A DNA stretch of 37,938 nt from the IMG/VR virus record IMGVR_UViG_2529292758_000013; one strand, 5' to 3'. The notes beneath the pieces are model-generated. The model made no database searches. It worked only from the letters and a program-made list of their open reading frames with translations, and was not told the DNA's origin. Position numbers and translations under genes: made by a program. Positions 1 through 23,134 of this stretch are shown here, in pieces. How positions within the stretch are numbered: the first letter of the stretch is position 1; each line of letters starts with the position of its first letter. The stretch is from a virus. Taxonomy: Duplodnaviria; Heunggongvirae; Uroviricota; Caudoviricetes.

Positions 1-1053
1 TTACGGGGTAATGCCAACCGCTGCCGCCACTTTGTCGCCACTTGGCAGCGTTGCCAGAGGATTGAAACGGAGCGCCGTTTCCAGATGATCCGGTGCCAGA
101 TGTGCGTAACGCATAGTCATTTTTATATCGTGGTGTCCGAGAATTTTTTGTAAGGCCAGAATGTTTCCACCCGACATCATGAAGTGCGCCGCAAACGTAT
201 GGCGCAGAACGTGTGTGAGTTGACCGCGAGGGAGCACGATAGACGTTTTTTCCATCACGGATAAAAATTGAAAATAGCAGTCTGTGAAGAAATTGAACCC
301 ATCAAGCGCCATGATCTCTTCGTAAAGCTCTTTACTGATAGGGATGCTTCTGTTTTTCTTCCCCTTCGTTCTTACAAAGGTAATTCGGTATTTGGTCACC
401 TGTGAGCGGGTAAGATTTACGGCTTCTCGCCAGCGTGCGCCTGTGCTTAAGCATATCTTAACTACCAGTGCCAGAATTGGGTCCTGACGTTTGCAATCAG
501 CCAGTAATTCAACAATCTGCTCATGGGTAAGCCATGCCATCTCTTTTTCTGCGATGGTGAATTTTCGCATGTTCTCCAGTGGGTTCGGATACGACCATTC
601 GCCCAGGCGGGATAGTTCGCTAAAAACACTACTTAGATAGCTTTGCTCCAGGTTAATGGTGACCGGGCTTGCTCCTTTCTTCCATTTCTCGCTGAAGTAG
701 ATCTCACCTGTCAGGCGTTTATCTCGATAGTGGGCAAACATTTTAGAGGTTAGATCAGTTGCAAGGGGATTGCCCAGAGCGTCAACCATCAGCAGCAATT
801 TGTCATAGACATGCTGCCCAGCAGTCAGAGATTTACCATGTAGTTTGAACCATAGCTCAACCACGTCTTTCAGTGTTCGACGATCCACTGATTCACCCAG
901 CCAGGGCTTTGCTTCGGTTTCTTCCATCGTGTGACGCTCAAAAGCCAGTGCTTCGCCTTTGGTGGCGAATTGTTTACGCACACGACGCCCACTACGTCCG
1001 GCGGGGTAACATTCGCAAAGCCATTTTCCTGTGGTGAGTTTTCGTACAGCCAT
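1..1053 (-). CDS. int: Phage tyrosine integrase (P2/186 family); reading frame runs to the window edge, so the C-terminal end/stop may lie outside
   Basis: Translation from the Met at 1053 (MAVRKLTTGKW...) resembles P2-type Int N-terminus from memory; tyrosine-recombinase boxes present (LSTGARWREA; HVLRHTFAAHF...GHHDIKMTMRYAHL). The 6-frame ORF start at 1131 is probably an upstream extension. Confidence 0.88.
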   Translation of the reverse strand: MAVRKLTTGKWLCECYPAGRSGRRVRKQFATKGEALAFERHTMEETEAKPWLGESVDRRTLKDVVELWFKLHGKSLTAGQHVYDKLLLMVDALGNPLATDLTSKMFAHYRDKRLTGEIYFSEKWKKGASPVTINLEQSYLSSVFSELSRLGEWSYPNPLENMRKFTIAEKEMAWLTHEQIVELLADCKRQDPILALVVKICLSTGARWREAVNLTRSQVTKYRITFVRTKGKKNRSIPISKELYEEIMALDGFNFFTDCYFQFLSVMEKTSIVLPRGQLTHVLRHTFAAHFMMSGGNILALQKILGHHDIKMTMRYAHLAPDHLETALRFNPLATLPSGDKVAAAVGITP

Positions 1054-1132: not shown

Positions 1133-2464
1133 TCACTGAAGTAAAAAAACTTTTAAAGCATCTTTCACAATATTTGTTGGTTCACCAATACCGCCACCAC
1201 CTTTTAAAAAATGGTATTCACTCATTTCTGCCCATTGTCTTTTTATATTTTCCTCAGCAGGTAAAAGAGATGAGTTTTCAGATAAGTATTTGTAAACTAT
1301 TCCAAATATAGCATATTCATAATTATCTACATTATATTCACTTGTTTGATATGAAAATTTAGATAAACCAAACAATTTCATGATTGATTGAGCATCAACT
1401 TTATCTTCAAGAAAGTTGAGAGCTAACTCTCGGTTAAAAGTGTAGATTATTATCGCTAGAGTCCTGTAATAACAATATCCATAAATATATTTGTTGCTAA
1501 TTTTGTCGCCTGATAGTAGTTGGTATATTTCAACATATCTAGCAAGTGTTTCAACCTCACGTAATGATAATTTTCTACTTTCAATGAACTGTAAGAAAAT
1601 ATCTTCGCTGGCTTCTACTGCAGCGGTCAGCCTTTCAGATTGCTCACATAGCATCATCCAATGATTTTTGGAAGTTAAAGTGTCATTATAATTATCTTCC
1701 TTAAAGGTAACAGGAAGGCTGTATGTAAATTTTATAAATTTGTCAAGATAACGGTTGGAGTCTACAGAAGAGCCATAGATATGATTTATGGATGCTTTTA
1801 GTTGAGTTGTGTTTGCAATTAATAAAAAGTTAATGTTTTTTATATCAAAAACATGTTTTATATTTTCAATAATAGAAATGGCAAAACTAGGCTTACATCT
1901 GTCTAACTCATCTATAATTATTGTTAGTTTACTTTCTCCAGCTAATTTGGTTAGTACTTCTTTTAGAGCAAGAACGTTCTTTTGTGCCTCGATATGATCT
2001 TCTAACAGAGCCTCGATGGTTCCATCGATAGCTGAATTTGCAGCGTCTTTGATAACCTCTTCAAATTCCTCATTAATTTCATCCGCATTTTGTTTTAATA
2101 CCCAACCAGCACCAGCTTTGAGTACAGTCTTAAGTCCGAATCTGAGGGCTGGCAATGCCTTAGATATTAATTCCTTTTTTTCATCGCTATTATATAGAGC
2201 TGCAATTGCGGCCATTATTGTAAGTATGGGAGCATCGTTGTGATCTTCAGTAAAAGCATCTATATAAACTACTTTATGATTGGTCGAGTTTATTTCAATT
2301 AAGGATGCTAACTTTTTTGAAAACTCTGTTTTTCCAGTCCCCCAGTCCCCATCTATGACCATAGGTGAAACAGGAATATTAGACTCTAGCAAACTTATTA
2401 TTTTTTCTGCAATGGCTTTTCTTTTATATTCATCACGTATATCGAAAGTTATATCTGTGCTCAT
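1133..2464 (-). CDS. KAP-family P-loop NTPase (accessory cargo gene)
   Basis: Walker A GDWGTGKT and KAP-type Walker B IIIDELDRC seen in translation; SD-like AAGGA upstream of ATG at 2464; visibly AT-rich compared with the phage backbone. Confidence 0.75.
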   Translation of the reverse strand: MSTDITFDIRDEYKRKAIAEKIISLLESNIPVSPMVIDGDWGTGKTEFSKKLASLIEINSTNHKVVYIDAFTEDHNDAPILTIMAAIAALYNSDEKKELISKALPALRFGLKTVLKAGAGWVLKQNADEINEEFEEVIKDAANSAIDGTIEALLEDHIEAQKNVLALKEVLTKLAGESKLTIIIDELDRCKPSFAISIIENIKHVFDIKNINFLLIANTTQLKASINHIYGSSVDSNRYLDKFIKFTYSLPVTFKEDNYNDTLTSKNHWMMLCEQSERLTAAVEASEDIFLQFIESRKLSLREVETLARYVEIYQLLSGDKISNKYIYGYCYYRTLAIIIYTFNRELALNFLEDKVDAQSIMKLFGLSKFSYQTSEYNVDNYEYAIFGIVYKYLSENSSLLPAEENIKRQWAEMSEYHFLKGGGGIGEPTNIVKDALKVFLLQ

Positions 2465-3658: not shown

Positions 3659-4168
3659 ATGTTTGATTACCAAGTTTCCAAACATCCACATTTTGATGAA
3701 GCCTGTCGTGCATTCGCACTGCGCCACAACCTGGTGCAGCTGGCAGGACGTGCAGGAATGAATGTGCAGATTCTGCGAAACAAGTTGAACCCTGCTCAAC
3801 CTCATTTATTAACCGCACCAGAAATTTGGCTGCTTACCGATCTGACTGAAGATTCGACGCTGGTAGATGGCTTTCTGGCTCAGATTCACTGTCTGCCATG
3901 TGTACCGATTAATGAGGTAGCAAAAGAGAAACTGCCACATTACGTCATGAGTGCAACCGCAGAGATCGGACGTGTTGCTGCAGGTGCGGTATCTGGCGAT
4001 GTAAAAACCAGTGCAGGTCGTCGTGATGCTATCAGCAGCATTAACTCTGTAACACGACTGATGGCGCTGGCTGCTGTTTCATTGCAGGCCCGTTTACAGG
4101 CTAATCCTGCGATGGCGAGTGCAGTTGATACCGTGACTGGCCTCGGTGCTTCATTCGGTTTGCTGTGA
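3659..4168 (+). CDS. cII: Phage 186-type CII regulatory protein
   Basis: Translation [24 protein letters not shown]...[24 protein letters not shown] matches the 186 CII protein as I recall it; ATG at 3659 (an in-frame TTG at 3650 is an alternative). Confidence 0.8.
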
Positions 4169-4175
4169 GGTGCTT

Positions 4176-4409
4176 ATGCTGACGAAAGAACCATCATTTG
4201 CATCGCTGCTGGTAAAACAAAGTCCGGCAATGCACTACGGTCACGGCTGGATTTATTTACCTTGTGGGAAAAAGTGGCATCCAAGTTTTGAATTACAACC
4301 CCGGCAACAGGCTTACCGGGGAAGAAATAAAAAGCGATTCCTACAAAGATTTATGGTTAACGTGGCAAACAACCTGCGAACCAAGCGAAAAGTTTTTCTT
4401 GGAAGCTGA
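4176..4409 (+). CDS. Hypothetical early protein (77 aa); its N-terminal segment is duplicated at 4996-5055
   Basis: SD GAGGTG 3 nt before ATG 4176, directly after the cII stop; C-terminal part overlaps the reverse-strand ORF 4357-4815. Confidence 0.4.
   Translation: MLTKEPSFASLLVKQSPAMHYGHGWIYLPCGKKWHPSFELQPRQQAYRGRNKKRFLQRFMVNVANNLRTKRKVFLGS
4193..4252. repeat. 60-bp direct repeat, copy 1 (59/60 identical to 4996-5055)
   Basis: ATCATTTGCATCGCTGCTGGTAAAACAAAG[T/C]CCGGCAATGCACTACGGTCACGGCTGGAT read at both positions. Confidence 0.9.
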
Positions 4410-4815
4410 GGTTTACATCGTCAACCCGACCACAGGCAATAGCAGCTCTTTTGTAGGCAGGGTTTAACAAAGATCCGAATGTTGTGGAGTCAGAGTGATG
4501 CAAAGCTTTCAATTTTTGTGCAATGAACTGTGGAGACAATTCATCCTCGGCGTAAAGCAACTCACCATATTGTCGGCTTTGTACGCTTGCTCGTTCCGCA
4601 ATAATAGCTGGTTGCCATACAAGTTGGATTGTTGCGATTACAACAACAGGAAAAGCGAACAACCATTCCAGACCTGTATTAGCAAATACAGCTGTTCCGC
4701 TTATAAGTTGGATTGCTGTCATTAATTTATCAGCTCGACCATGGAACGTTGCTGTCATTAGTTCAAGGTAATAACAGTAGTGTAATTGGAAGTATTCGGA
4801 GCTTTGTTTAGTCAT
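4357..4815 (-). CDS. Hypothetical protein with a hydrophobic (probably membrane) segment; reverse-strand cargo inside the early region
   Basis: 152-aa ORF on the opposite strand to the early operon; hydrophobic stretch LISGTAVFANTGLEWLFAFPVVVIATIQLVW; bounded by the 60-bp direct repeats. Confidence 0.45.
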   Translation of the reverse strand: MTKQSSEYFQLHYCYYLELMTATFHGRADKLMTAIQLISGTAVFANTGLEWLFAFPVVVIATIQLVWQPAIIAERASVQSRQYGELLYAEDELSPQFIAQKLKALHHSDSTTFGSLLNPAYKRAAIACGRVDDVNLSFQEKLFAWFAGCLPR

Positions 4816-4824
4816 GCCGGATTC

Positions 4825-4905
4825 CTATTTCTTCTCTTGCCCCGGTTCAGGCTGAGGTGCTGGAGCCGGGCGAGGGAGTACATGAAAGTTGTCTGTTTCT
4901 GACAT
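4825..4905 (-). CDS. Possible 26-aa Pro-rich peptide (MSETDNFHVLPRPAPAPQPEPGQEKK) immediately upstream of the 152-aa reverse-strand ORF
   Basis: ATG at 4903-4905 preceded on the minus strand by AAAGGAGAAAA; stop at 4825-4827; 9 bp before the next reverse-strand start. Confidence 0.25.
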   Translation of the reverse strand: MSETDNFHVLPRPAPAPQPEPGQEKK

Positions 4906-4995
4906 CAGTTTTCTCCTTTGAGGGGTAGATGATTGTTAGCACAAATAGTCTACCACTGAGGCACGCGCCGGGCGTGTAGAAAAATTCCCGGCACA

Positions 4996-5055
4996 ATCAT
5001 TTGCATCGCTGCTGGTAAAACAAAGCCCGGCAATGCACTACGGTCACGGCTGGAT
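4996..5055. repeat. 60-bp direct repeat, copy 2
   Basis: See copy 1; the two copies bracket the reverse-strand cassette 4357-4905. Confidence 0.9.
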
Positions 5056-5275
5056 CATGGGTGAGGATGGTAAACGCTGGCATCCATGTTATTCACAAGA
5101 TGAATTGCTGTCTGAAGTGACCACGAGGAAACGGAGAAAGTCCAAATGTATGCGGCAGAAAGTGAAGTGGTTTATCAGTTTCGTTACAGAGGGGATAGTT
5201 ATTCAGTACCTGAAGATGATTTGCTCTGTTGTTATCCGTCGTTGTCGGGCGATGGCAGTTACTTTTTCACACTAA
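5033..5275 (+). other. Diverged second copy of the gene begun at 4176 (shares MHYGHGWI...GK[KR]WHP); lacks an obvious RBS, coding status uncertain
   Basis: Upstream in-frame stop at 4946-4948 and no SD before ATG 5033; overlaps the 5146-5370 ORF in another frame. Confidence 0.3.
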
Positions 5276-5370
5276 AGGATGGGACGTTTTTACGGGGAGA
5301 GCAGGTTAAAGAGACGGTACGAAAAAATGTATCTCCCCTTGAGCGTTACCGTAAGAACAAAGAACGATAG
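5146..5370 (+). CDS. Hypothetical early protein (74 aa)
   Basis: ORF with SD-like GGAGAAAG upstream of ATG 5146; same orientation as the early operon. Confidence 0.4.
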   Translation: MYAAESEVVYQFRYRGDSYSVPEDDLLCCYPSLSGDGSYFFTLKDGTFLRGEQVKETVRKNVSPLERYRKNKER

Positions 5371-5392
5371 TTGCGTTTTGGGGATATGAATT

Positions 5393-5734
5393 ATGGCAAT
5401 TAATGGCGCTGCGGCGACTGTTCCATTAAGCCCCGGTGAACGCCTGAATGGACTTAATCACATTGCGGAATTAAGAGCGAAAGTTTTTGGCCTGAATATT
5501 GAGTCAGAGCTTGAGCGGTTTATTAAAGATATGCGTGATCCACGGGATATCAATAATGAACAAAATAAACGGGCACTGGCTGCCATATTCTTTATGGCAA
5601 AAATTCCAGCTGAACGTCATAGCATCAGCATTAATGAGCTGACCACTGACGAAAAGCGGGAGCTGATTAAAGCAATGAATCATTTTCGTGCAGTGGTGAG
5701 CTTATTTCCCAGACGGCTAACCATGCCGAATTAA
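5393..5734 (+). CDS. Hypothetical early protein (113 aa)
   Basis: ORF in early-operon orientation between cII and the replication gene; no motif recognised. Confidence 0.5.
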   Translation: MAINGAAATVPLSPGERLNGLNHIAELRAKVFGLNIESELERFIKDMRDPRDINNEQNKRALAAIFFMAKIPAERHSISINELTTDEKRELIKAMNHFRAVVSLFPRRLTMPN

Positions 5735-5801
5735 CCAACTAATGAAATTCATGGCGTAAACCCGCCAGGCATCCCTTTATCTAAATTCAGGAGAATTGAT
5801 T

Positions 5802-6035
5802 ATGCGTAATATTGAAACCCTCACGACTAAAACCGGACCGGATGATGCAGGGCTTAATATTTTACTGACAGAGGCTCGTCTGGAAGAACGCCGGGCAAGG
5901 GCTGAAGCAATGGCAGCTCGCCTTGATAGCCTGGCGTGTCATATCACATCCCGCCAGCTAAACCACGTCGAAGCGGCAGAACTGCTGCGTGTGACTGCTG
6001 AAGCAATCCAGAACGAAGCGCAGGAGATCCACTGA
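5802..6035 (+). CDS. Hypothetical early protein (77 aa)
   Basis: SD CAGGAG 8 nt before ATG 5802; stop overlaps the next start (TGATG). Confidence 0.5.
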   Translation: MRNIETLTTKTGPDDAGLNILLTEARLEERRARAEAMAARLDSLACHITSRQLNHVEAAELLRVTAEAIQNEAQEIH

Positions 6036-6262: not shown

Positions 6263-7116
6263 GCACCATCCTGAAATGGGCGGGTAATAAAACCGCCATT
6301 ATGCCGGAACTGAAAAAATACCTTCCTGCTGGCCCGCGACTGGTTGAACCTTTCGCGGGTTCTTGTGCTGTGATGATAGAGACGGATTACCCCAGCTATC
6401 TTGTTGCGGATATTAATCCTGATTTAATCAACCTCTATAAAAAGGTTGCTGCTGATTGCGAGGCGTTTATATCTCGTGCCAGAGCTTTATTTGAGGAAGC
6501 AAACAGGGAGGTGGCTTATTACAACATAAGGCAGGAGTTTAATTACTCCACTGAAATTACTGATTTCATGAAAGCGGTATATTTCCTGTATCTCAATCGT
6601 CATGGTTACCGTGGGTTATGTCGCTATAACAAGAGCGGGCATTTCAACATTCCCTACGGGAATTATAAAAATCCGTATTTCCCTGAAAAAGAAATTCGCA
6701 AATTTGCAGAAAAAGCCCAGCGAGCAACGTTTATCTGCGCCAGCTTTGATGAAACGCTGGCGATGTTGAAGGCGGGGGATGTGGTGTATTGCGATCCGCC
6801 TTATGACGGTACGTTTTCCGGCTATCACACTGATGGCTTCACTGAGGATGACCAGTATCACCTGGCATCCGTTCTTGAACATCGATCATCTGAAGGTCAT
6901 CCGGTCATTGTTTCTAACAGTGACACATCCCTGATTCGTTCGCTGTATCGCAATTTCACTCACCACTACATCAAGGCAAAACGCAGCATCGGCGTGTCGG
7001 CTGGCGAGAGTAAATCTGCAACAGAAATCATTGCTGTTTCCGGGGCGCGCTGCTGGGTGGGATTTGATCCTTCGCGTGGCGTGGATAGTTCTGCTGTGTA
7101 CGAGGTGCGTGTATGA
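6259..7116 (+). CDS. dam: DNA adenine (N6) methyltransferase, Dam-like
   Basis: DPPY catalytic motif ([10 protein letters not shown]), N-terminal KWAGNK and FAGSCAV SAM-binding-like motifs; ATG at 6259 overlaps the upstream stop (ATGA). Confidence 0.85.
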
Positions 7117-9527
7117 GTCATGACGATATGAGCAACTCTAGCGGCTTTAACGAGGCCGCTGCAGCATTTTCATGGAACGGCCCGAAAAAGGCCATTAACC
7201 CTTATCTGGACCCGGCGGAAGTTGCGCCGGAGTCTGCACTTTCAAACATGATCACTCTGTACGCTGCCGATAACGAGCAGGAACAGCTGCGCCGCGATGC
7301 ACTGAGTGAGCAGGTCTGGGAGCGTTATTTCTTTAATGAATCCCGTGATCCTGTCCAGCGCGAAATGGAGCAGGATAATCTCATTAGTCGGGCAAAGCTG
7401 GCGCATGAGCAGCAGCGTTTTAACCCGGACATGGTCATTCTGGCGGACGTCAGCGCCCAGCCCACCCACATCAGCAAGCCGCTGATGCAACGTATCGAAT
7501 ACTTCAGCAGCCTGGGCAGGCCAAAGGCTTATTCCCGCTATTTGCGTGAGACGATTAAGCCATGTCTGGAGCGACTGGAGTATGTACGCGACAGTCAGCT
7601 ATCCGCTTCTTTCCGTTTTATGGCAAGCCATCAAGGGCTTGAGGGCCTGCTGATCCTGCCTGAAATGAGTCAGGATCAGGTAAAACGCCTGTCCACCCTG
7701 GTAGCAGCGCATATGAGCATGTGTCTTGAGGCCGCTTGTGGTGATTTGTATGCCTCCGATGACGTTAAGCCAGAAGAAATCCGCAAGACATGGGAAAAGG
7801 TGGCAGCGGAAACCCTGCGTCTGGATGTTATCCCGCCTGCGTTTGAGAAACTCCGTCGGAAAAGAAACCGCCGCAAACCCGTGCCCTATGAACTCATACC
7901 GGGTTCGCTGGCACGTATGCTTTGCGCCGACTGGTGGTATCGAAAATTGTGGAAGATACGTTGCGAATGGCGGGAAGAGCAGTTGCGTGCTGTCTGCCTG
8001 GTCAGCAAAAAAGCATCTCCCTATGTCAGCTATGAAGCAGTGACGCATAAACGTGAGCAGCGCCGCAAGTCGCTGGAGTTTTTCCGTTCTCATGAACTGG
8101 TGAACGAAGACGGCGACACGCTGGATATGGAAGACGTGGTAAACGCCAGCAGCAGCAACCCGGCGCACCGCCGCAATGAGATGATGGCCTGTGTTAAAGG
8201 TCTGGAGCTTATCGCGGAAATGCGTGGTGACTGCGCCGTTTTCTACACCATTACCTGTCCGTCACGTTTCCATTCTACGCTCAATAACGGCAGACCAAAC
8301 CCAACCTGGACAAATGCGACGGTAAGACAAAGCAGTGATTATCTGGTCGGCATGTTTGCTGCATTTCGTAAGGCGATGCACAAAGCCGGATTGCGCTGGT
8401 ATGGCGTGCGGGTGGCTGAGCCGCATCATGACGGCACAGTTCACTGGCACCTGTTGTGTTTTATGCGCAAAAAAGACCGCCGCGCCATTACTGCTTTGTT
8501 GCGTAAGTTTGCCATTCGTGAAGACCGCGAGGAGCTGGGTAATAACACGGGGCCACGCTTTAAGTCTGAGCTGATAAACCCGCGCAAAGGAACGCCGACA
8601 AGCTACATCGCGAAATATATCAGCAAGAACATTGACGGGCGTGGTCTGGCTGGCGAGATCAGCAAGGAAACGGGTAAATCTCTGCGTGATAACGCTGAAT
8701 ACGTGAATGCCTGGGCGTCTTTGCATCGTGTTCAGCAATTCCGCTTCTTTGGTATTCCGGGACGTCAGGCTTACCGTGAACTTCGCTTGCTGGCTGGTCA
8801 GGCGGCAAGGCAACAGGGTGACAAAAAAGCAGGTGCGCCGGTACTGGATAACCCGCGTCTTGATGCCATTCTGGCTGCTGCTGATGCTGGTTGTTTTGCC
8901 ACCTACATCATGAAGCAGGGCGGCGTACTGGTTCCCCGTAAATATCACCTCATCAGAACCGCTTATGAAATCAACGAAGAGCCGACCGCCTATGGCGATC
9001 ACGGTATTCGTATTTATGGCATCTGGTCACCCATTGCAGAGGGCAAGATCTGCACTCATGCAGTGAAGTGGAAAATGGTTCGTAAAGCCGTTGACGTTCA
9101 GGAGGCGGCAGCCGACCAGGGCGCTTGCGCCCCTTGGACTCGTGGCAATAACTGTCCCCTTGCTGAAAATTTGTACCAACAAGGGAAAGACAAATCAGCT
9201 GATGGAGATACCAGAACGGATATCACCCGTATGGATGACAAGGAGTTGCACGATTACCTGCACAGTATGAGCAAAAAAGAGCGCCGGGAACTGGCAGCAA
9301 GATTACGCCTGGTTAAACCGAAACGACGTAAAGACTACAAACAGCGAATTACAGAGTATCAGCGTCAGCAGCTCGTCTATGAACTGAAGTCCAGAGGATT
9401 TGATGGCAGCGAGAAAGAAGTCGATTTGCTCCTTCGCGGTGGCAGTATTCCATCAGGAGCAGGCCTGCGTATCTTCTATCGGAACCAGCGTCTGAAGGAA
9501 GATGATAAGTGGCGGAACCTGTATTAA
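7113..9527 (+). CDS. A: Replication initiation endonuclease, P2 gene A type (rolling-circle Rep, HUH class)
   Basis: HUH motif ([10 protein letters not shown]) and tyrosine motif [12 protein letters not shown]; 804 aa; ATGA overlap with dam; position after the early operon. Confidence 0.88.
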
Positions 9528-9619
9528 TTACGCGGGTTAACAATTCGTGCTCTTAATAATACCAGGCATATCAGGCTGATGAACGTAAAAAAACGTTTTA
9601 CATCAGTAAGATTATTATA

Positions 9620-9639
9620 TACTGCAAATATAAACAGTG
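9620..9639 (+). promoter_or_regulatory. LexA (SOS) box-like operator TACTGCAAATATAAACAGTG upstream of the Tum/DinI-like module
   Basis: CTG-N10-CAG with AT-rich centre, matching the LexA box consensus TACTGTATATATATACAGTA at most positions; a partial second half-site (ATGTATACAGTA) follows at about 9643-9654. Confidence 0.55.
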
Positions 9640-9680
9640 GTTATGTATACAGTATTGCTTGTGGTGTCATAGGAGGAAAG

Positions 9681-9869
9681 ATGCAGGACTATTTTTTGGA
9701 GTCTTTGAAGCTCCAGCGCATTGATTTTTTTCTTAAGCTTGTAGCGGCTAGTGAGTGTAGTGATGAAGAGAAGGGGCTGGCTCTGCAGTGGGTTTCTGAA
9801 CTGACAGATGAACTCATGGCAAAAATCAGAACCCACGAATACAACCGCTCAATGGATGTCATCAGCTGA
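9681..9869 (+). CDS. Small protein (62 aa), possible antirepressor (Tum-like N-terminal part)
   Basis: Strong SD AGGAGGA 6 nt before ATG 9681, just downstream of the LexA box; function inferred from position relative to phage 186 tum. Confidence 0.4.
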   Translation: MQDYFLESLKLQRIDFFLKLVAASECSDEEKGLALQWVSELTDELMAKIRTHEYNRSMDVIS

Positions 9870-9879
9870 GGTGACTTTT

Positions 9880-10113
9880 ATGCGCATTGAAATAATGATC
9901 GATAAAGAGCAGAAGATTAGCCAGTCTACCCTGGACGCCCTTGAATCCGAGCTTTACCGCAATCTGCGCCCCCTGTATCCCAAAACGGTAATTCGTATCC
10001 GCAAAGGTAGCTCTAACGGTGTGGAACTTACCGGATTGCAACTGGACGAAGAAAGAAAACAAGTGATGAAAATTATGCAGAAAGTGTGGGAAGACGACAG
10101 CTGGCTGCATTAA
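9880..10113 (+). CDS. DinI-family protein (77 aa)
   Basis: MRIEIMIDKEQ...LRPLYPKTVIRIRKGSSNGVELTG...QKVWEDDSWL resembles DinI (MRIEVTIAK...ETWESADDWF) from memory; SD GAGGTG before ATG 9880. Confidence 0.65.
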   Translation: MRIEIMIDKEQKISQSTLDALESELYRNLRPLYPKTVIRIRKGSSNGVELTGLQLDEERKQVMKIMQKVWEDDSWLH

Positions 10114-10319
10114 GAAACGTTGCCCCCAAGAGGATTCATTCGAATGGGGGCTAGTTTGGGCAATGAGTGAAATAAGGCGTAAGGTGGGTGGTCATTTTGA
10201 TAAATGATCGTCCGCTTTGTGCCAGAAGCGAACGTTTCTTCTGCTATCTTTCGTCAATTAACGAATGGCAGACTAATTTGCAACGGATAATCTGAATTTT
10301 GTAAGATTATGGGTATTCC

Positions 10320-10325
10320 TATAAT
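10320..10325 (+). promoter_or_regulatory. Candidate sigma70 -10 hexamer (TATAAT) in the AT-rich leader of the second KAP-like gene
   Basis: Perfect TATAAT at 10320-10325 with a TTGTAA -35-like hexamer 15 bp upstream; not verified. Confidence 0.3.
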
Positions 10326-10434
10326 ATTTACCAATAATAACCTTACAATGTACACTACCTATTGAATTTTCCATAGTTGGCCTTTGGCTCTACTTACCAT
10401 CTATGTTTATGTATTTTATCAAAATGGACTAAAA

Positions 10435-12327
10435 ATGCACAATACGTACATCAAAGACTATATAGAATATTACCTTAGCCTTAAAACTGAACCTCAATAC
10501 GCCATTATGCTTAAAGGTGCTTGGGGATCAGGTAAAACTTGGTTCATTGAACGAGTTCTTGAAGAATATAAGCAAAAGCATTCAGAGTTCAAATTTCTTA
10601 AAGTGAGTTTGTATGGCGTCAACTCTATTGAGCAGATTGAAGATGAGTTCTATCGTCAACTTCATCCTATTCTATCAAACAAAGCCCTTATCTTTGGTGC
10701 AAATGTACTAAAAAATACGCTTAAGGCTACTTTCAAGATCGATTTCAATGGCGATAATAAGTCTGACGTAGATGTCAATGCCAGTGTCCCCACTATTAAT
10801 CTTAGCGACTTTAGCAGAGAACCAGATGGTTTTGTGCTGGTCTTTGATGATATCGAGAGAGCTGGTATAGATTTACCAATCTTATTTGGATATATAAATC
10901 ACTTTGTAGAAGTAAACGGATACAAAGCGATCCTGGTTGCCAATGAAGAAGAAATAATCAACAGAGAAAAGCGAATAAATAATGATGATGAGAAATCTAG
11001 CAGTGAATACATAAGAACAAAAGAAAAGCTTGTAGGTAAAACATTTGAAGTAACGTCAGATTTACATAGTGCTTGTAATATTTTCTTGGGCGTAATTAGT
11101 AGTTTACACGTAGCTAATATATTTAAAGAAGATATGCAGACCATAGAACACCTCTATGTGTCGGCGAAATATAATAATCTAAGACATTTGAGGCAGTTCT
11201 TTCTTGATGTACAACGCATCATTTCCCTTTTGGGAGATAAATATGTCAGCAACGACGATTTTATGAAAGTATTTTTCCAGCAGTTATTAATTTTCTCGAT
11301 GGAGTACCGGGGAGGGAACCTTAACTACGAGGATTTCAATTCAATCGGCAATGTAAATTATAGTATGTTTTTAGATAAAGGGCGTGCCAAAACTAAGTAT
11401 GATATGATCGTCGAGAAATATTCATCACCTGTATTAACCGAGACGTTACTGGATGGTGCGTACTGGAGAGAGCTAATCTGTGATGGAAAGGTAACGCATG
11501 ATCTTCTCGCTCAGCTGGATATTACGCGATTTTTTAGAAGCACCGATGCCCAAGCATGGGAGTATTTGTGGAACTATCGAGAACTTAATGAAACTATTCT
11601 TAATGAACAGTACGCCATTGCCAAGGATAATCTATTTTCAGGTAAGATCACTTCCTTAGGTGAACTCCTGATGACCGCGAGTATTTTGCTGGCATTGGCG
11701 AAAGAAGGTTTAACCACAGATGCTGTTGATGACATTATAAATGAGACAAAACATCATATAGATATTTATTACAATGGATTAGGACCTGAAGATATACATC
11801 AGGAGTATGCGCAAAGACATTATAATGAGTTAATGGCATGGCGTGGCTTTGGTTTTCTTGACAGGGATAGCGATGAATTCAAACTCATTATTGAGCATAT
11901 TAAGATAGCGCAGAAGAAACGGTTTGATGAATCAATTCCGGAGTTTGCATTGAAGTTCAGCGATGAGTTGCAAAGAGGAAATTTATCGTTTGTATCTGAA
12001 TTGTGTCATTCTAATAATAGGCAGCTAAATCTTCATAACGTGCCTTTTTTACACTTGGTTTCTCCTGAAGTTTTCATTGAAAGCTATAGGAAACTTGACC
12101 CAATCATCATGAGGAAACTGGCATTTAGCTTGAGGGATCGTTATTCTGATAGGGATGCCAGAACCAGACTGACCGAAGAATACAACTGGTTGATTAGCCT
12201 AAAAGAGATAGCTGTAGATTTCACTCAAAACGCAGCCAATAACTCCTTTCAGGTTTTTCATGTAAAGTTTTTTATTGACTATGCACTAACTAATGCAATC
12301 AAATTATTTACTGAGGGAACTGATTAA
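10435..12327 (+). CDS. KAP-like P-loop NTPase, second divergent copy (630 aa from ATG 10435; an in-frame TTG at 10384 is possible)
   Basis: Walker A GAWGSGKT and Walker B-like VLVFDDIER in a layout parallel to the 1133-2464 protein; AT-rich; followed by a GC-rich hairpin terminator. Confidence 0.7.
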   Translation: MHNTYIKDYIEYYLSLKTEPQYAIMLKGAWGSGKTWFIERVLEEYKQKHSEFKFLKVSLYGVNSIEQIEDEFYRQLHPILSNKALIFGANVLKNTLKATFKIDFNGDNKSDVDVNASVPTINLSDFSREPDGFVLVFDDIERAGIDLPILFGYINHFVEVNGYKAILVANEEEIINREKRINNDDEKSSSEYIRTKEKLVGKTFEVTSDLHSACNIFLGVISSLHVANIFKEDMQTIEHLYVSAKYNNLRHLRQFFLDVQRIISLLGDKYVSNDDFMKVFFQQLLIFSMEYRGGNLNYEDFNSIGNVNYSMFLDKGRAKTKYDMIVEKYSSPVLTETLLDGAYWRELICDGKVTHDLLAQLDITRFFRSTDAQAWEYLWNYRELNETILNEQYAIAKDNLFSGKITSLGELLMTASILLALAKEGLTTDAVDDIINETKHHIDIYYNGLGPEDIHQEYAQRHYNELMAWRGFGFLDRDSDEFKLIIEHIKIAQKKRFDESIPEFALKFSDELQRGNLSFVSELCHSNNRQLNLHNVPFLHLVSPEVFIESYRKLDPIIMRKLAFSLRDRYSDRDARTRLTEEYNWLISLKEIAVDFTQNAANNSFQVFHVKFFIDYALTNAIKLFTEGTD

Positions 12328-12390
12328 CATTTTGTTGATTAACATAGGTAATATTATTAGAAGTACTAGACATGGTCAGTAAAATTATTA

Positions 12391-12420
12391 AAGTCCGCTT
12401 CGCTCGAAGCGGACTTTGTG
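12391..12420. terminator. Hairpin terminator after the KAP-like gene, T-rich on both sides
   Basis: AAGTCCGCTTCG...CGAAGCGGACTT perfect inverted repeat followed by TTTGTGCTTT. Confidence 0.5.
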
Positions 12421-12612
12421 CTTTATAAAAACGAGAGTTTTGTTTTTCAAGCGGTCATTCGGTTACGGGATTTCACTTCCCCCGTAAGTGCATGACTATG
12501 CCGCATGAGATCGCATGATCGTTTGCGGATCGTTTTTGCCAAGGTCCGCCAGAACTGGCGGGCTTTTGCGTAGATCATGCAGGTGCATGAAAACCACTAC
12601 ATAAAGTGGGCA

Positions 12613-12631
12613 GGCGTGGCGGGGATACGAG
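12613..12631. other. cos-like cohesive-end sequence (GGCGTGGCGGGGATACGAG) inside a GC-rich hairpin-dense non-coding region
   Basis: First 13 nt identical to the 186 cohesive end as I recall it (GGCGTGGCGGGGAAAGCAT; P2 GGCGAGGCGGGGAAAGCAC); located between the right-end genes and the portal gene. Confidence 0.5.
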
Positions 12632-12850
12632 CGCGCGCAACGAGGTGAAATAGCAAAACTCGGCACAGCCTACGGCCCGCTAGCGGCTTCAAATTGAAAT
12701 GGTGAGGTGCAGCAGCAAAAAAACCGCCCCACAGGAAGTTGTTGAGGTTGTTTATTGAGGGAATTGGCTTAAGCGGTAAAACACAAACATTGCAACTTGT
12801 GCATGAAATTGATACATTGTGCGTAATGTGTCTATATTGCGGGGTGTTTT

Positions 12851-13522
12851 ATGGCTTTCAGAGCGGAAGAAGCAGCAGCATCGAATTTCGAAAATGCTTA
12901 CAGATATCTAGTTCCACAAGGTTCAAATCAGGAGATGCGTTCGAAAGTTAGGGCGAAGCTCAAAGAAATTGTTGAAGAATGTGGGCCAGTAGTGGATGGG
13001 TATCCAGCATGGCATCCTTTTTTGCTGGAAAGAGATAAAGCTATTTGGGCGCCTATGACTCCCAATAATACTCCTAGCTTTAAATACCTGGACCACACGG
13101 TCTATTTCAGGAACGGCATTCTTACCTGTCCTTATGGTCATGGGGTTGATGAATTTATAGCTGGTATAAAACGTCTAAAGCACACGGATGCCCATTTCTC
13201 TATTGAGAAGATTGATGACGTTGTGCTTTATAATGACAACGCCGTCCCGTTGTTAATAAAATGCCATTGGCTTATTTCGGAAGATATGGAAGAGGATGGC
13301 ACCATTCCAGCAAAAGCAGCAATTGGATTGATGCTTGAAAGCGAGGTTCCTAACTGGCGGCATGCAGTTTATTGTGAAAATTGGGAAGATATGCGCGGGC
13401 AGTTGATGGGATATCCGCACGGTGCCAGATCATCTCTATTTGTTAATCAGCAGACAGGACAGAAAATGAAAAACTTCTGGAATCAGCTGATTAAGACCGG
13501 AATTCTTGGGGAAGAGCGATAA
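12851..13522 (+). CDS. Hypothetical protein (223 aa), cargo gene between cos and the portal gene
   Basis: Uninterrupted ORF with candidate promoter TTGATA-N18-TATATT at 12809-12838; no motif recognised; hairpin after the stop. Confidence 0.55.
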   Translation: MAFRAEEAAASNFENAYRYLVPQGSNQEMRSKVRAKLKEIVEECGPVVDGYPAWHPFLLERDKAIWAPMTPNNTPSFKYLDHTVYFRNGILTCPYGHGVDEFIAGIKRLKHTDAHFSIEKIDDVVLYNDNAVPLLIKCHWLISEDMEEDGTIPAKAAIGLMLESEVPNWRHAVYCENWEDMRGQLMGYPHGARSSLFVNQQTGQKMKNFWNQLIKTGILGEER

Positions 13523-13574
13523 TTTCTTGAGGCTTAGCTGCGCCTTTAACAAGCAGAGGCGCTGCTTTTTAAAT

Positions 13575-14624
13575 TTAGCTATCGTTGTTTGTGTCTATTC
13601 CCAGCGTGTAGGGCTCGAAGCGGATCACCTCTTTACCTAGCCAGTAATTCAGCTCCTGCAGCCGCTTTTGCAGCGGCATCAGTTCATTGCGGACGAAGAC
13701 ACGGCTCGCTTTTTCCACATCCCCAAAACCCCCAACATTATTCGGCATAATCCCCATCATTTGCGGTGGCACACGATGCGCCGCCATCATGTCATCCCGG
13801 CTCACGTTCTTGATGTTCAGAAACTCATCCTTCGCCGCGACTTCTGACAACGGGATGATCTGAAGCCCGTCCTTTTTGCCGTTAGGCGAGTACATAAACA
13901 GATTGCGGAAGTTACCTGGTCCTTTGGCGCTTTTCATCGCATTGCGGAGGTTGTTCACATCCTCCTGGTTTTGCGCGGCATCGGTCATGTACATGATGAA
14001 GCCTGCATGACTGCCGTTAATGTAATACTTTCGGCGGAACAGCGTGGCGGACTCGTTGAGCAGGGCTGACGGAATGGCAGAAAGATAACCTGGCAGGCCG
14101 TAGATCTCCTGGTTGATGTCCGGTTCCATCAGATGAAAGATGCTGCCTTTCGTAAACTGATACGGCTGCGTGGTCATGCCGTATTGCACAAACCAGTAGG
14201 TATCCAGGTCTAACCCGCGTCGGGTGTATTTTGCCAGGGCCGGTTCAAGGACGATAACTTCACCGAAGCGGTTCGTGCGTTTCTCCAGGTAGGCGTTACC
14301 AAATACCAGATAGTCCTGCACAAAACGTGAAAAAGCCTGCTGGCTGAGCAGCGGGTGAGGGATGTAGGTGCTGGTCAGAATGTTGCACTTTACTGCAATC
14401 GGTGAGCTGTGATGCACGGCGGCGCGAAAGGTGCGCGCCAGCCCGTCGAAACTCACTGGCGGCTCATACCAACGATCTGTCTGTACGCATTCCACATAGT
14501 CCAGCAGTTCGCGGCGGTCCAGAACAGGAACGGGATCACCGAAGCTGAATGCTTCGGCTGAAGTCTGGCTTTTATGCTGGATCTGGTTCGTCGACGCAGC
14601 GCGGTTCTTCTTACTCTTTCCCAT
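13575..14624 (-). CDS. Q: Portal protein, P2 gpQ type
   Basis: 349-aa ORF reading leftward away from the terminase gene with TGATG stop/start overlap; P2 Q-P gene order. Confidence 0.85.
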   Translation of the reverse strand: MGKSKKNRAASTNQIQHKSQTSAEAFSFGDPVPVLDRRELLDYVECVQTDRWYEPPVSFDGLARTFRAAVHHSSPIAVKCNILTSTYIPHPLLSQQAFSRFVQDYLVFGNAYLEKRTNRFGEVIVLEPALAKYTRRGLDLDTYWFVQYGMTTQPYQFTKGSIFHLMEPDINQEIYGLPGYLSAIPSALLNESATLFRRKYYINGSHAGFIMYMTDAAQNQEDVNNLRNAMKSAKGPGNFRNLFMYSPNGKKDGLQIIPLSEVAAKDEFLNIKNVSRDDMMAAHRVPPQMMGIMPNNVGGFGDVEKASRVFVRNELMPLQKRLQELNYWLGKEVIRFEPYTLGIDTNNDS

Positions 14625-16390
14625 CAAAAAATCTCCACAATATTGCTGGTATTGGCGGACTCGCCCTGCAGCGGTTCGTTAAACAGTGCGTGCATGGTTG
14701 CCCAGGCCAGATCGGCATGGCTGGCTTCTTCGCTGCGGCTGGCTTCATAGGTCGGGCGGTTGCCGCTGGCGGTGGTGGCGCGACGGATTGCCATAAATGA
14801 CTGCGCTATGTCGGTGTGTCCGGCGTCAAACTCCAGACGGCGGTGACTGATAATGTCGTAGGCCTTGAGTACCAGGGCGTTTTTAACGTTGGGGTTGTAG
14901 ACAAACTCCCGGACGGCTGGAAAAAACGCTTTCACGTTCTCGTAAACCCCGTGACCAACGCCGGTTGAGTCGATACCGATATAAGTCACGTTGTACTGTT
15001 CGGTAAGTTTTTTGATGGCGTCAGCCTGGGCGCGGAAGTCCATCCCGCGCCACTGGTGACGCTCAAGAATGCGGAACTTACCACCCGGCACGGCTGGCGG
15101 TGCCACCACCACGCATCCAGCGCTGTCGCCGTTTTGCGTACCTTTTGCCGGGTCATAACCGATCCACACTTCGCGCCAGCCAAACGGGCGCAGTGCCAGT
15201 GCATGAAAGTCGGTCCAGACTTCCCAACTGTCCACCATGCACGCCTGCAGCTCGCTGAGCGGAAACACGGACGCGAGATCGTCCACAAACTCGCACATCA
15301 GCAGGTTCTGGTATTCGTCCGGGCTGTACTCCATGCGTAGCTGGTCGAGGTCGAACAGGTTACAGCCGCCGCGCACCGCATCTTCCACGGTGACTATCTG
15401 GCGGTACTGCCCGTCTGCGCACAGCAGGCCGGGGGCCAGATTGCTGTGGGACAGGTCGATGTCCACCTTATCGGCTTTGTTGCGCCCACGGTTGAACAGC
15501 GCACCGGACCAGAACGGATAAGCACTGTGTGTCAGACTGGATGGCGTGGAAAAATAGGTTTGTCGCCATTTTTTGTGAATAGCCATACCGGAAGCCACTT
15601 TGCGCAGCTCCTGGAATTTCGGTATCCAGAAATATTCATCCAGATACAGGTTGCCGTGGTAACTCTGGGCCGTGCGGGCATTGGTGCCGAGGAAGTAAAG
15701 CGTGGCCCCGTTAGGAAGCACCATCGGATCGCCTTTCAGCTCCACCTCCACTTCTTTGGCAAAGTCGATGATGTACTGTTTAAAGACGTGGGCCTGAGCC
15801 TTGCTGGCAGAAAGGAAAATCTGGTTACGCCCGGTCAGCAGGGCGTCAATCAGGGCTTCACGGGCAAAGTAAAAGGTCGCGCCGATCTGGCGTGACTTCA
15901 GCAGGTTGCGGATGCGGTTGGTTTTTCCGGCTTCCCACCAGTGGCGCTGGTAGTTGAACATAGAGGAATTGAAGATTTCTTCCAGTTTCTCAATCTGTTC
16001 ATCGGTGAAAACATTCTTTTCCGGCTGACGACGTGGGCCTTTGTTGCGGTTGGCAACGTTAGGGTTTAAGTCGGCTTCGTTGCCGCCATTGTTAAACTTG
16101 CCGATCCGCGCGTGGCGCTCAGACTGGCGTGCCAGCAGGTCAATTTCTTTGAAATCTTTCCCTTCTTTGTGCTCCTTCATAATGAGCTGGCAGTAGCGTG
16201 CGGCGGTGGTGAGCTGCATCTGATCCAGCGGCCCATAGTCACCCCACTTGTCGCGTTTTTTCCAGCTGTGAACGGTTGCAACTTTCTCGCCCAGCATTTC
16301 AGCAATGCGGGCGACGCGGTATCCCTGAAAGTACAGCAGCATGGCCTGCCGACGGGGATCGAGGTCTGCGGGTGTCAGTGTGGTGTTCAT
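14624..16390 (-). CDS. P: Terminase large (ATPase) subunit, P2 gpP type
   Basis: 588-aa ORF with terminase-like segments (SRQIGATFYFAREA..., LYLDEYFWIP); divergent from the O-N-M-L operon as in P2. Confidence 0.88.
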   Translation of the reverse strand: MNTTLTPADLDPRRQAMLLYFQGYRVARIAEMLGEKVATVHSWKKRDKWGDYGPLDQMQLTTAARYCQLIMKEHKEGKDFKEIDLLARQSERHARIGKFNNGGNEADLNPNVANRNKGPRRQPEKNVFTDEQIEKLEEIFNSSMFNYQRHWWEAGKTNRIRNLLKSRQIGATFYFAREALIDALLTGRNQIFLSASKAQAHVFKQYIIDFAKEVEVELKGDPMVLPNGATLYFLGTNARTAQSYHGNLYLDEYFWIPKFQELRKVASGMAIHKKWRQTYFSTPSSLTHSAYPFWSGALFNRGRNKADKVDIDLSHSNLAPGLLCADGQYRQIVTVEDAVRGGCNLFDLDQLRMEYSPDEYQNLLMCEFVDDLASVFPLSELQACMVDSWEVWTDFHALALRPFGWREVWIGYDPAKGTQNGDSAGCVVVAPPAVPGGKFRILERHQWRGMDFRAQADAIKKLTEQYNVTYIGIDSTGVGHGVYENVKAFFPAVREFVYNPNVKNALVLKAYDIISHRRLEFDAGHTDIAQSFMAIRRATTASGNRPTYEASRSEEASHADLAWATMHALFNEPLQGESANTSNIVEIF

Positions 16391-22381: not shown

Positions 22382-23134
22382 TTAGATACTGAGATTTTTT
22401 TTACATAATAGTATAAATTCACAGTACATGTTATAGATTTTAGTCGCACATCTGTTAGCTTTTTTTATGGTTTCTATCTTTTCAGGGGGGAGGCTCAATA
22501 AGGCAATCTCTCTGTCGCTGAGCATTGAAATAAACTCGCTGCTGCCTAAATACCCGGAGTTGCAGGCTAAAAAATAATTAAAGTTAGTTAACTCTTTGTG
22601 TAGTTCGTTAGATTTTATTTCTATTTCATTATCATGAAAATGATGTATGGCCTTTCCCCATTCATGGCAGTATGTTGTCATGTCTTTAAGGTTTGAGTCA
22701 TGAAATCTATTGCCAAAGTCATGGCTTTTTAGAAAGTCTATTGAGTTTGAATCTGGTGGTAATAATTTTATAAACTCTTTATATAGATTAATGTCAGAGT
22801 TCCTTTGTCTTTCTTTCTTTTCTCTGTTTTCTTTAATTTTAATACTGTCAAAGAACCATTCTGGCACTTTACTTAATAAGTTATAGGTTAACCCCAAAGC
22901 AATTAGAGTGATGGCTACCATCGTGCTTGGATTACCATTATCTATTTTTATTATATCAATATCTGCATTGAATTTTTTATTATATATATCAATTATAAAA
23001 TTAAGTGCCATGAGATAATATGGAATTGGTAGCGCAATTATGCTTAGCCCAGTTATAACTAAAGCCCAAGTTATTTTATTACTAAACTCAGGAAATATTA
23101 CATTGATTATTTTTTTAACAATATACCTTTTCAT
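22382..23134 (-). CDS. Hypothetical protein with two N-terminal transmembrane helices (250 aa), AT-rich cargo gene between tail genes S and V
   Basis: SD AGGGAG 7 nt before ATG 23134 (minus strand); TM segments ITWALVITGLSIIALPIPYYLMALNFII and MVAITLIALGLTYNLL; long Lys/Asn/Ile-rich soluble domain. Confidence 0.6.
   Translation of the reverse strand: MKRYIVKKIINVIFPEFSNKITWALVITGLSIIALPIPYYLMALNFIIDIYNKKFNADIDIIKIDNGNPSTMVAITLIALGLTYNLLSKVPEWFFDSIKIKENREKKERQRNSDINLYKEFIKLLPPDSNSIDFLKSHDFGNRFHDSNLKDMTTYCHEWGKAIHHFHDNEIEIKSNELHKELTNFNYFLACNSGYLGSSEFISMLSDREIALLSLPPEKIETIKKANRCATKIYNMYCEFILLCKKNLSI

Follow-up and report, generated by a model that had tools for sequence, protein, structure and literature searches.

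Transmembrane helices joined to the NTPase domain are typical of the KAP family of P-loop NTPases. The gene considered here encodes a KAP-family protein of 630 amino acids (aa), and lies in the prophage of IMG/VR record IMGVR_UViG_2529292758_000013, whose whole stretch of 37,938 nucleotides was analysed and is called the window below. Its sequence is that of a 186-like prophage of the P2 family, and it is identical to a prophage of E. coli NC101 and NGF1. Among the closest described systems, PifA of the F plasmid is a KAP protein that lacks transmembrane helices and has a long C-terminal extension, and leads to membrane depolarisation and nucleotide leakage (PMC13001434). EF_KAP and related proteins combine a KAP NTPase with an unannotated C-terminal region, and defend Enterococcus in a manner that requires the Walker B motif (PMC12632615). 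Reve is a validated single-gene KAP system of the P4 hotspot, with effects of up to ~1e-6 efficiency of plating on Drexlerviridae (bioRxiv 10.64898/2026.02.27.708500). The location is also familiar. According to Rousset et al. 2022 the region from gpA to the portal gene is a defence hotspot, which in P2 holds tin and old. Table S5 of that study lists the NC101 locus as 'hypothetical + KAP_NTPase + hypothetical + DinI', including WP_000552033, and contains the label 'KAP_NTPase' at least 69 times.

We conclude, with a probability of about 0.6, that the gene is that of a self-contained moron cassette, and that it likely provides a one-protein defence of the lysogen against other phages. We infer the anti-phage activity from the match to the Pfam family PF07693 together with a full-length match to the PADLOC candidate family PDC-S49, from kinship with Reve, from residence in the hotspot, from mobility as a single gene, from the selection acting on the gene, and from the precedent of other KAP proteins.

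The open reading frame (ORF) opens over 10384-12327 from a TTG codon, and the ATG at 10435 gives the 630-aa protein, which is RefSeq WP_000552033.1 of E. coli NC101, annotated as 'P-loop NTPase fold protein'. An earlier reading, made from the letters without database searches and termed here the sequence-only reading, had described an AT-rich 630-aa KAP-like NTPase with the motifs GAWGSGKT and LVFDDIER. All of the listed sequence features are present, with Walker A at aa 28-35 and Walker B at aa 134-141, and the family assignment is upheld by a PF07693 score of 76.1 bits against a cutoff of 20 (expectation value (E) 3.6e-21). This match runs over aa 4-262, corresponding to profile positions 3-289 of 293, and so takes in the whole NTPase domain. 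The features that define the KAP family were taken from Pfam, general knowledge and the summary in PMC13001434, and the protein has both the Walker A pattern GxxGxGK[ST] and the Walker B pattern hhhhD[DE] followed by x[DE]R. In 95 homologues W30, G31, G33, K34, D138, D139, E141 and R142 are invariant, as are N170 and R250 and three residues of the helical domain, E290, W375 and R569. Walker A and Walker B are intact, N170 is a sensor-1-like residue and R250 a lid arginine.

A PADLOC search was one of the checks proposed with the sequence-only reading. The protein matches PDC-S49 at E 1.5e-160, with aa 2-624 aligned onto profile positions 5-615 of 624, and three PDC-S49 models match altogether (E 1.5e-160, 2e-152 and 2.2e-88). 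These profile matches identify the protein as a full-length member of the family. The matching family in PHROGs is of unknown function, and there is no mention of PDC-S49 in the literature searched.

The protein contains no transmembrane segments, the maximum 19-residue Kyte-Doolittle hydropathy being 1.49. Membership of the KAP family is not excluded by the missing helices, because PifA likewise is without them. An AlphaFold2 model calculated with 95 homologues has a mean predicted local distance difference test (pLDDT) value of 84.3, and is poorly defined only at aa 80-122. This segment is an insert between Walker A and Walker B that is rich in lysine and non-hydrophobic. The protein comprises an ORC/Cdc6-like NTPase domain of ~255 aa fused to an all-helical, solenoid-like C-terminal domain of ~370 aa, and the modelled NTPase fold is closest to the ORC/Cdc6-type AAA+ proteins. 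There is no N-terminal effector, since the NTPase begins at about residue 4. Matches to the Pfam families nSTAND6, NACHT and NB-ARC are all below threshold.

How close is the protein to Reve? The 586-aa Reve ORF was taken from Dataset E1 of the preprint. Both are single genes in a cos-adjacent hotspot of P2/P4 phages, similar in length, and both proteins have an N-terminal KAP NTPase (GxWGxGKT and DDLER in Reve) and a long uncharacterised C-terminal half, with no transmembrane segments. For both the top Foldseek match is the human ORC motor module, and the sole PADLOC match of Reve is PDC-S49, at E 2.5e-11 and confined to the N-terminal half. In hhalign, Reve aligns with a profile of the PDC-S49-type family at 96.1% probability over 205 columns of the NTPase. 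The two differ, however, in that BLASTP finds 35% identity over 49 residues only and the full profile scores 22 bits, while the C-terminal profile gives no match to Reve and the C-terminal halves are not detectably alignable. Identity with Reve is rejected on these grounds, as only the NTPase domain aligns, and the trigger and the output of Reve may differ from those of the 630-aa protein. On the alignments, Reve is the nearest validated relative, sharing the architecture and the type of niche without being a member of the family.

The other described systems are more distant. PifA is, like the 630-aa protein, a single KAP protein without transmembrane helices that is carried on a mobile element, and it excludes T7; the PADLOC profile of PifA nevertheless matches the Walker A region only (E 0.005, aa 18-57). 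EF_KAP, compared by its description, is similar in concept in being a single-gene KAP protein with an uncharacterised C-terminus, but it has two N-terminal transmembrane helices and belongs to a host of another phylum. RdrA and RADAR differ, with no RdrB deaminase as a neighbour and no RADAR match in PADLOC, and the STAND and Avs proteins differ in that the 630-aa protein has no N-terminal effector domain and no Avs match in PADLOC; template-modelling scores (TM-scores) are low in both cases. QatA is matched neither in PADLOC nor in NCBIfam, and there are no other genes inside the cassette, unlike Qat. None of the PD systems of Vassallo et al. gives a PADLOC match to the protein, and KAP proteins are unmentioned in that paper. 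Finally, tin and old of P2 occupy the same region between gpA and the cos site or portal gene and have a prophage-borne exclusion role, yet the proteins are unrelated; Old is an ATPase-TOPRIM nuclease, and neither matches the 630-aa protein.

The gene is contained in a cassette with defined edges (Table 1). Homology to an 'empty' 186-like prophage ends at 10123 and restarts at 12487, and the empty prophage has 68 base pairs (bp) in its place. The fraction of G plus C (GC) is 0.36-0.38 over 10001-12500 compared with 0.50-0.60 in the phage core. Both flanks, that is the 62-aa ORF with the DinI gene on the left (PHROG matches phrog_698 and phrog_189) and ~150 bp up to cos on the right, are found in ~1,260 of 5,426 complete E. 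coli genomes. In most of these the left flank is 90-98% identical in nucleotide sequence, and the matches stop at cos. The KAP gene is carried by 46 of the 5,426 genomes (0.85%), and ~96% of the prophages with the same flanks are without it. Other contents of the slot include an HNH endonuclease, DUF2971, a pair comprising a hypothetical gene and DUF6575, and a GNAT gene that runs in the opposite direction, and the slot may also be empty. The KAP gene is cargo, and is not part of the phage core. The interval had been placed at the tin/old position of P2, which agrees with the gpA-to-portal hotspot of Rousset et al. 2022, and the survey of relatives that was called for at the same time finds that the gene is not conserved in all of them.

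Table 1. Positions of the gene, its cassette and the neighbouring features in the window.
Feature	Position	Strand	Basis or remark
Integrase	1-1053	-	RefSeq CDS; longest ORF extends to 1131
Other KAP NTPase, 443 aa, PDC-S20, int-cI slot	1133-2464	-	PF07693 E 1.4e-53
Replication gene A	7113-9527		Last gene of early operon
LexA-box-like palindrome TACTGCAAATATAAACAGTG, upstream of tum-like module, outside cassette	9620-9639		16/20 to consensus
62-aa ORF	9681-9869	+	Left conserved flank of hotspot
DinI-like ORF	9880-10113	+	Pfam DinI E 6.6e-23; left conserved flank
GC-rich hairpin GCCCCCA...TGGGGGC, then weak U-tract	10122-10151	+	Folding; right after DinI stop codon
Variable cargo cassette of tum-to-cos slot, 2.36 kilobases	10124-12486	+	Comparison with 'empty' 186-like prophage
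Portable unit: ~220 bp leader, ORF and terminator	10214-12415	+	83% nucleotide match to Serratia
Invariant leader block AATTAACGAATGG, 13 bp	10256-10268	+	Same in two E. coli alleles and in the cassettes of Serratia and Edwardsiella
TATAAT of the sequence-only reading	10320-10325	+	TATAAA in ES8; ACTAAA in Serratia and Edwardsiella
Conserved -10-like hexamer TAnAAT (here TACAAT)	10344-10349	+	Four aligned cassettes
KAP-family NTPase gene, 630 aa, PDC-S49	10435-12327	+	Pfam, PADLOC
Terminator-like hairpin, both strands scored	12389-12418		13-bp stem, folding free energy (dG) -20 kcal/mol, z -5.8
Conserved right flank ending at cos	12487-12640		96% identical to empty prophage
Cos-like sequence GGCGTGGCGGGGATACGAG	12613-12631		Motif search
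223-aa ORF (WP_000885505)	12851-13522	+	Cos-to-portal interval
Portal gene	13575-14627	-	Late genes after

The placement of the gene downstream of a module with a LexA box and a DinI gene is confirmed. The LexA-box-like palindrome keeps CTG-N10-CAG and ranks second among the 25 such sites of the window, of which only those at 9620-9639 and 1083-1102 score above 11/20 against the LexA consensus. The KAP gene is co-oriented with this module and lies 321 bp downstream of it, and only a weak U-tract follows the hairpin downstream of the DinI gene. These features would be consistent with a role in the lytic cycle of the prophage itself, in which read-through after SOS induction supplies the protein, for example to counter host defences or a P4 satellite. 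We regard such a role as very unlikely, given that the great majority of the prophages with the same flanks do without the gene, which is not therefore needed for induction or growth, that the gene has its own conserved leader, and that cargo of the slot can lie on the opposite strand. The unit is also found at unrelated lambdoid positions and in non-phage islands that have no LexA module upstream; SOS read-through from the tum-like operon, though possible, therefore cannot be essential.

Between the DinI gene and the KAP gene there are two hairpins. For the first, the folded 56-nucleotide stretch 10110-10165 has a dG of -17.8 kcal/mol (z -1.97), and in this position the empty prophage forms another hairpin; the second lies at 10209-10234. 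The hairpin terminator proposed at the other end of the gene is present and strong, and lies at the 3' end of the unit common to Serratia. An Rfam scan of 9400-13700 returned one sub-threshold chance match only.

The leader is 311 bp in length with 37% GC. It includes a 13-bp block, AATTAACGAATGG, that is invariant while the leader around it diverges between cassettes, and which could be an operator or other regulatory site. The proposal that the leader belongs to the gene holds, in that it travels with the ORF, but the TATAAT in it was only partly a sound guide; the hexamer exists, yet it is not conserved, and the promoter scan found no qualifying -35 element for it and did not report the site. 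One TATAAT is about what chance would give in a leader of this length and composition, and this hexamer is rejected as a promoter. A second hexamer nearby, at 10344-10349, is conserved instead, being TACAAT, TACAAT, TATAAT and TAAAAT in the four cassettes aligned, and no convincing pair of -35 and -10 elements was found anywhere in the leader. Since the leader is conserved across genera and travels with the ORF, the cassette very probably brings its own expression signals.

The unit of leader, ORF and terminator is indeed portable. In a lambdoid prophage of Serratia liquefaciens it is present as one continuous match between an HNH gene and an integrase gene, and the Edwardsiella tarda copy belongs to a different lambdoid prophage, where it lies in the early-left region. 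A relative in Providencia that is 28% identical lies, again in a lambdoid prophage, between replication genes and antiterminator-Q genes. Among more distant relatives, some of which lie in small variable islands, that of Pseudomonas is in an island with a serine recombinase, that of Methylobacter in an island rich in toxin-antitoxin genes, and that of Burkholderia is flanked by housekeeping genes. The unit travels among P2-like and lambdoid prophages in several genera. No neighbouring gene recurs across eight genomic contexts, and the gene therefore acts alone.

How widespread is the family? Members of PDC-S49 occur in Enterobacterales, in Pseudomonas and Burkholderia, and in many metagenomes. 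Searching the full database with a profile of only the C-terminal domain gives 2,625 cluster representatives at 50% identity, 1,266 of them at E <= 1e-30. The best 150 of the 2,625 are either proteins of ~600-650 aa in which the domain spans ~250-625, or shorter fragment-like proteins, and six slightly longer members of the family contain no extra Pfam domain. The two-domain layout is therefore fixed, and the idea that the C-terminal domain might be a shuffled sensor module is rejected, as these best 150 show one architecture. Within that layout the two parts have diverged to different degrees. In distant homologues identity is 41-48% in the NTPase segments on either side of the insert and 37% within the insert (aa 80-125), and falls to 18-22% in the C-terminal half. 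In one allele of E. coli the N-terminal half is 97-100% identical and the C-terminal half 77-86%. Comparison with the alleles of E. coli, Serratia and Edwardsiella, over 630 codons with no gaps or stops, gives a ratio of nonsynonymous to synonymous substitution rates (dN/dS) of 0.26-0.30 overall, and for the three genera the values are 0.16-0.21 (NTPase half) and 0.34-0.38 (C-terminal half). Purifying selection thus acts on the gene, and the C-terminal half is the more plastic of the two. This bears on the idea that the cassette is inert or decaying DNA that has merely hitch-hiked with the prophage. The rarity of the gene would fit with that, as would its AT-rich foreign character, for which silencing by H-NS would be expected. 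It is nonetheless extremely improbable in view of the intact reading frame in three genera and its dN/dS ratio, the invariant catalytic motifs, and a family of this breadth whose best matches share one architecture.

If the protein defends the lysogen, a mechanism of the following kind can be envisaged. It would probably be expressed from its own leader in the lysogen, and the helical C-terminal domain would recognise a protein or nucleic-acid structure made by an infecting phage. Recognition would lead the NTPase, bound to nucleoside triphosphate (NTP), to become oligomeric and hydrolysing, in the manner of ORC/Cdc6, STAND and RdrA rings. The assembled state might then block infection by sequestering its target, by draining NTP, or by a perturbation of the membrane like that of PifA. 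This output is the weakest part of the scheme, and any single version of it is at best doubtful. Initiator AAA+ proteins have a DNA-contacting insert where PDC-S49 has its conserved lysine-rich insert between Walker A and Walker B. A more specific proposal, which we consider quite unlikely, is that PDC-S49 could be a widespread effector-less immune protein, whose NTPase would assemble on a phage DNA or protein target recognised by the fast-evolving helical domain, and which would act by sequestration or NTP exhaustion with no nuclease, pore or NADase. If true, this would be a mechanism not described for KAP proteins.

Several observations weigh against a defence function, and they have to be set beside the evidence for it. 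PDC-S49 is a computational defence candidate only, and the defence function of the protein and its family should be read as that of a candidate identified from sequence. There is no enzyme fold in the helical C-terminal domain and no recognisable effector domain in the protein, and how it would kill or block is a matter of conjecture. The phenotype of Reve is not simply transferable, because the C-terminal halves do not align. None of the sequenced phage isolates in INPHARED carries the gene. The same hotspot also holds partition systems and toxins according to Rousset et al. 2022, such that residence is no proof, and in the table of evaluated systems of that study there is no KAP entry, the locus being catalogued only. 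Some of these points, namely the mixed content of the hotspot and the lack of an effector domain, would equally suit an accessory role outside defence, such as exclusion or maintenance against plasmids or satellites or the regulation of a host complex, leaving incoming phages unaffected. The homologue in Pantoea fits here too, lying among antirestriction, RadC and PsiA genes in what the gene content suggests is a conjugative leading region. We consider a role of this sort unlikely. The match to a defence-candidate family extends along the whole protein, and the nearest relative to have been validated works in defence. Its neighbours elsewhere are typical defence cargo (HNH, DUF2971, AbiTii and toxin-antitoxin genes), and the C-terminal half diverges faster, as expected of a gene in conflict. 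We therefore retain defence of the lysogen as the preferred explanation.

The prophage carries a second KAP gene, in the slot between the integrase and the CI repressor gene, which follows it in the gene order and is itself followed by the early operon. Its product matches PDC-S20 in PADLOC at E 2.4e-171, and more weakly PifA (E 7e-16) and QatA (E 1.5e-11), the match to PifA being far better than that of the 630-aa protein. The two NTPases had been described as alike in layout with little shared sequence, and this is what is found. BLASTP aligns only Walker A, with 8/22 identities (E 0.005), and the hhalign alignment (82.7% probability) spans 158 columns from Walker A to beyond Walker B, with IIIDELDR aligned to LVFDDIER. 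The two proteins share the NTPase core only. The suggestion that such a pairing is unusual stands as to number, both genes being present in just 14 of the 5,426 genomes, but the double carriers are essentially one prophage, with the genes always ~8 kilobases apart, and six are copies of NC101. Each gene is commoner alone. The gene at 1133-2464 is in 34 complete genomes, in 20 of them by itself, and that of the cassette is by itself in 32. A functional linkage of the two is rejected given their independent assortment among genomes; the pairing reflects two independent cargo slots that were combined in one lineage, and does not amount to a coupled system.

Two further features are seen near this second gene. 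The best LexA-box-like palindrome of the window, TACTGTATATATAACCAGTG (1083-1102, 17/20 to the consensus), lies within the 79 bp that separate the stop of the KAP gene (1133) from the annotated integrase start (1053, minus strand), and suggests that the integrase, or else read-through out of the cargo slot between int and cI, is under SOS control. A 60-aa ORF on the minus strand (2478-2660) lies between the KAP gene and the CI repressor gene. It encodes a hydrophobic, signal-peptide-like N-terminus and four cysteines, matches phrog_6000 and has no Pfam match, and may be part of the int-cI cargo along with the KAP gene.

186-like prophages have two cargo slots that exchange independently, the tum-to-cos interval and, to the right of the cassette, the cos-to-portal interval. 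Alongside the KAP cassette the cos-to-portal slot contains either the 223-aa ORF or, in E. coli ES8, a ParA and SIR2 pair, and in other prophages SEFIR or AIPR genes. In a P2-like prophage of E. coli YD786 it contains a 614-aa 'P-loop NTPase fold protein' (WP_023147874.1, at 4017-5861 of the compared stretch) adjoining a protein with an HsdR N-terminal domain. This NTPase is a distant relative, and aligns with the PDC-S49-type family in hhalign at 98.6% probability (E 1.2e-15) over 378 columns that reach into the helical domain, and thus KAP-type NTPases recur in both slots of the hotspot. The 223-aa ORF beyond cos gave no match in Pfam, PHROG, NCBIfam or PADLOC. It is rejected as a partner of the KAP gene, since the ES8 cassette has the ParA and SIR2 pair in that position and both genes occur in only 24 of the 46 carriers. 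The ORF is preceded by a good promoter-like site (12809-12838, 10/12) and followed by a terminator-like hairpin (13540-13562).

Two other ORFs of the window are of note, both on the minus strand and both without a match in Pfam or PADLOC. One of 152 aa (4357-4815), annotated as hypothetical, is flanked by two Fil-family genes within the early operon, which reads rightward. The other, of 250 aa (22382-23134, WP_000833215), marks a third AT-rich cargo site, with a GC fraction of 0.31 at 22501-23000, within the late region between a virion morphogenesis gene and baseplate gene V.

The locus has already been catalogued and its family is a known candidate, and single-gene KAP defence, though still emerging, is of a known kind. 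Our analysis is a correct and useful annotation of catalogued cargo, not the description of a new kind of system, and its value as annotation lies in a cassette with defined, portable boundaries. Should the protein prove active, PDC-S49 would go from a computational candidate to a validated one-gene defence system, and the NC101/NGF1 prophage would become a tractable E. coli model for KAP NTPases that have neither a membrane anchor nor an effector.

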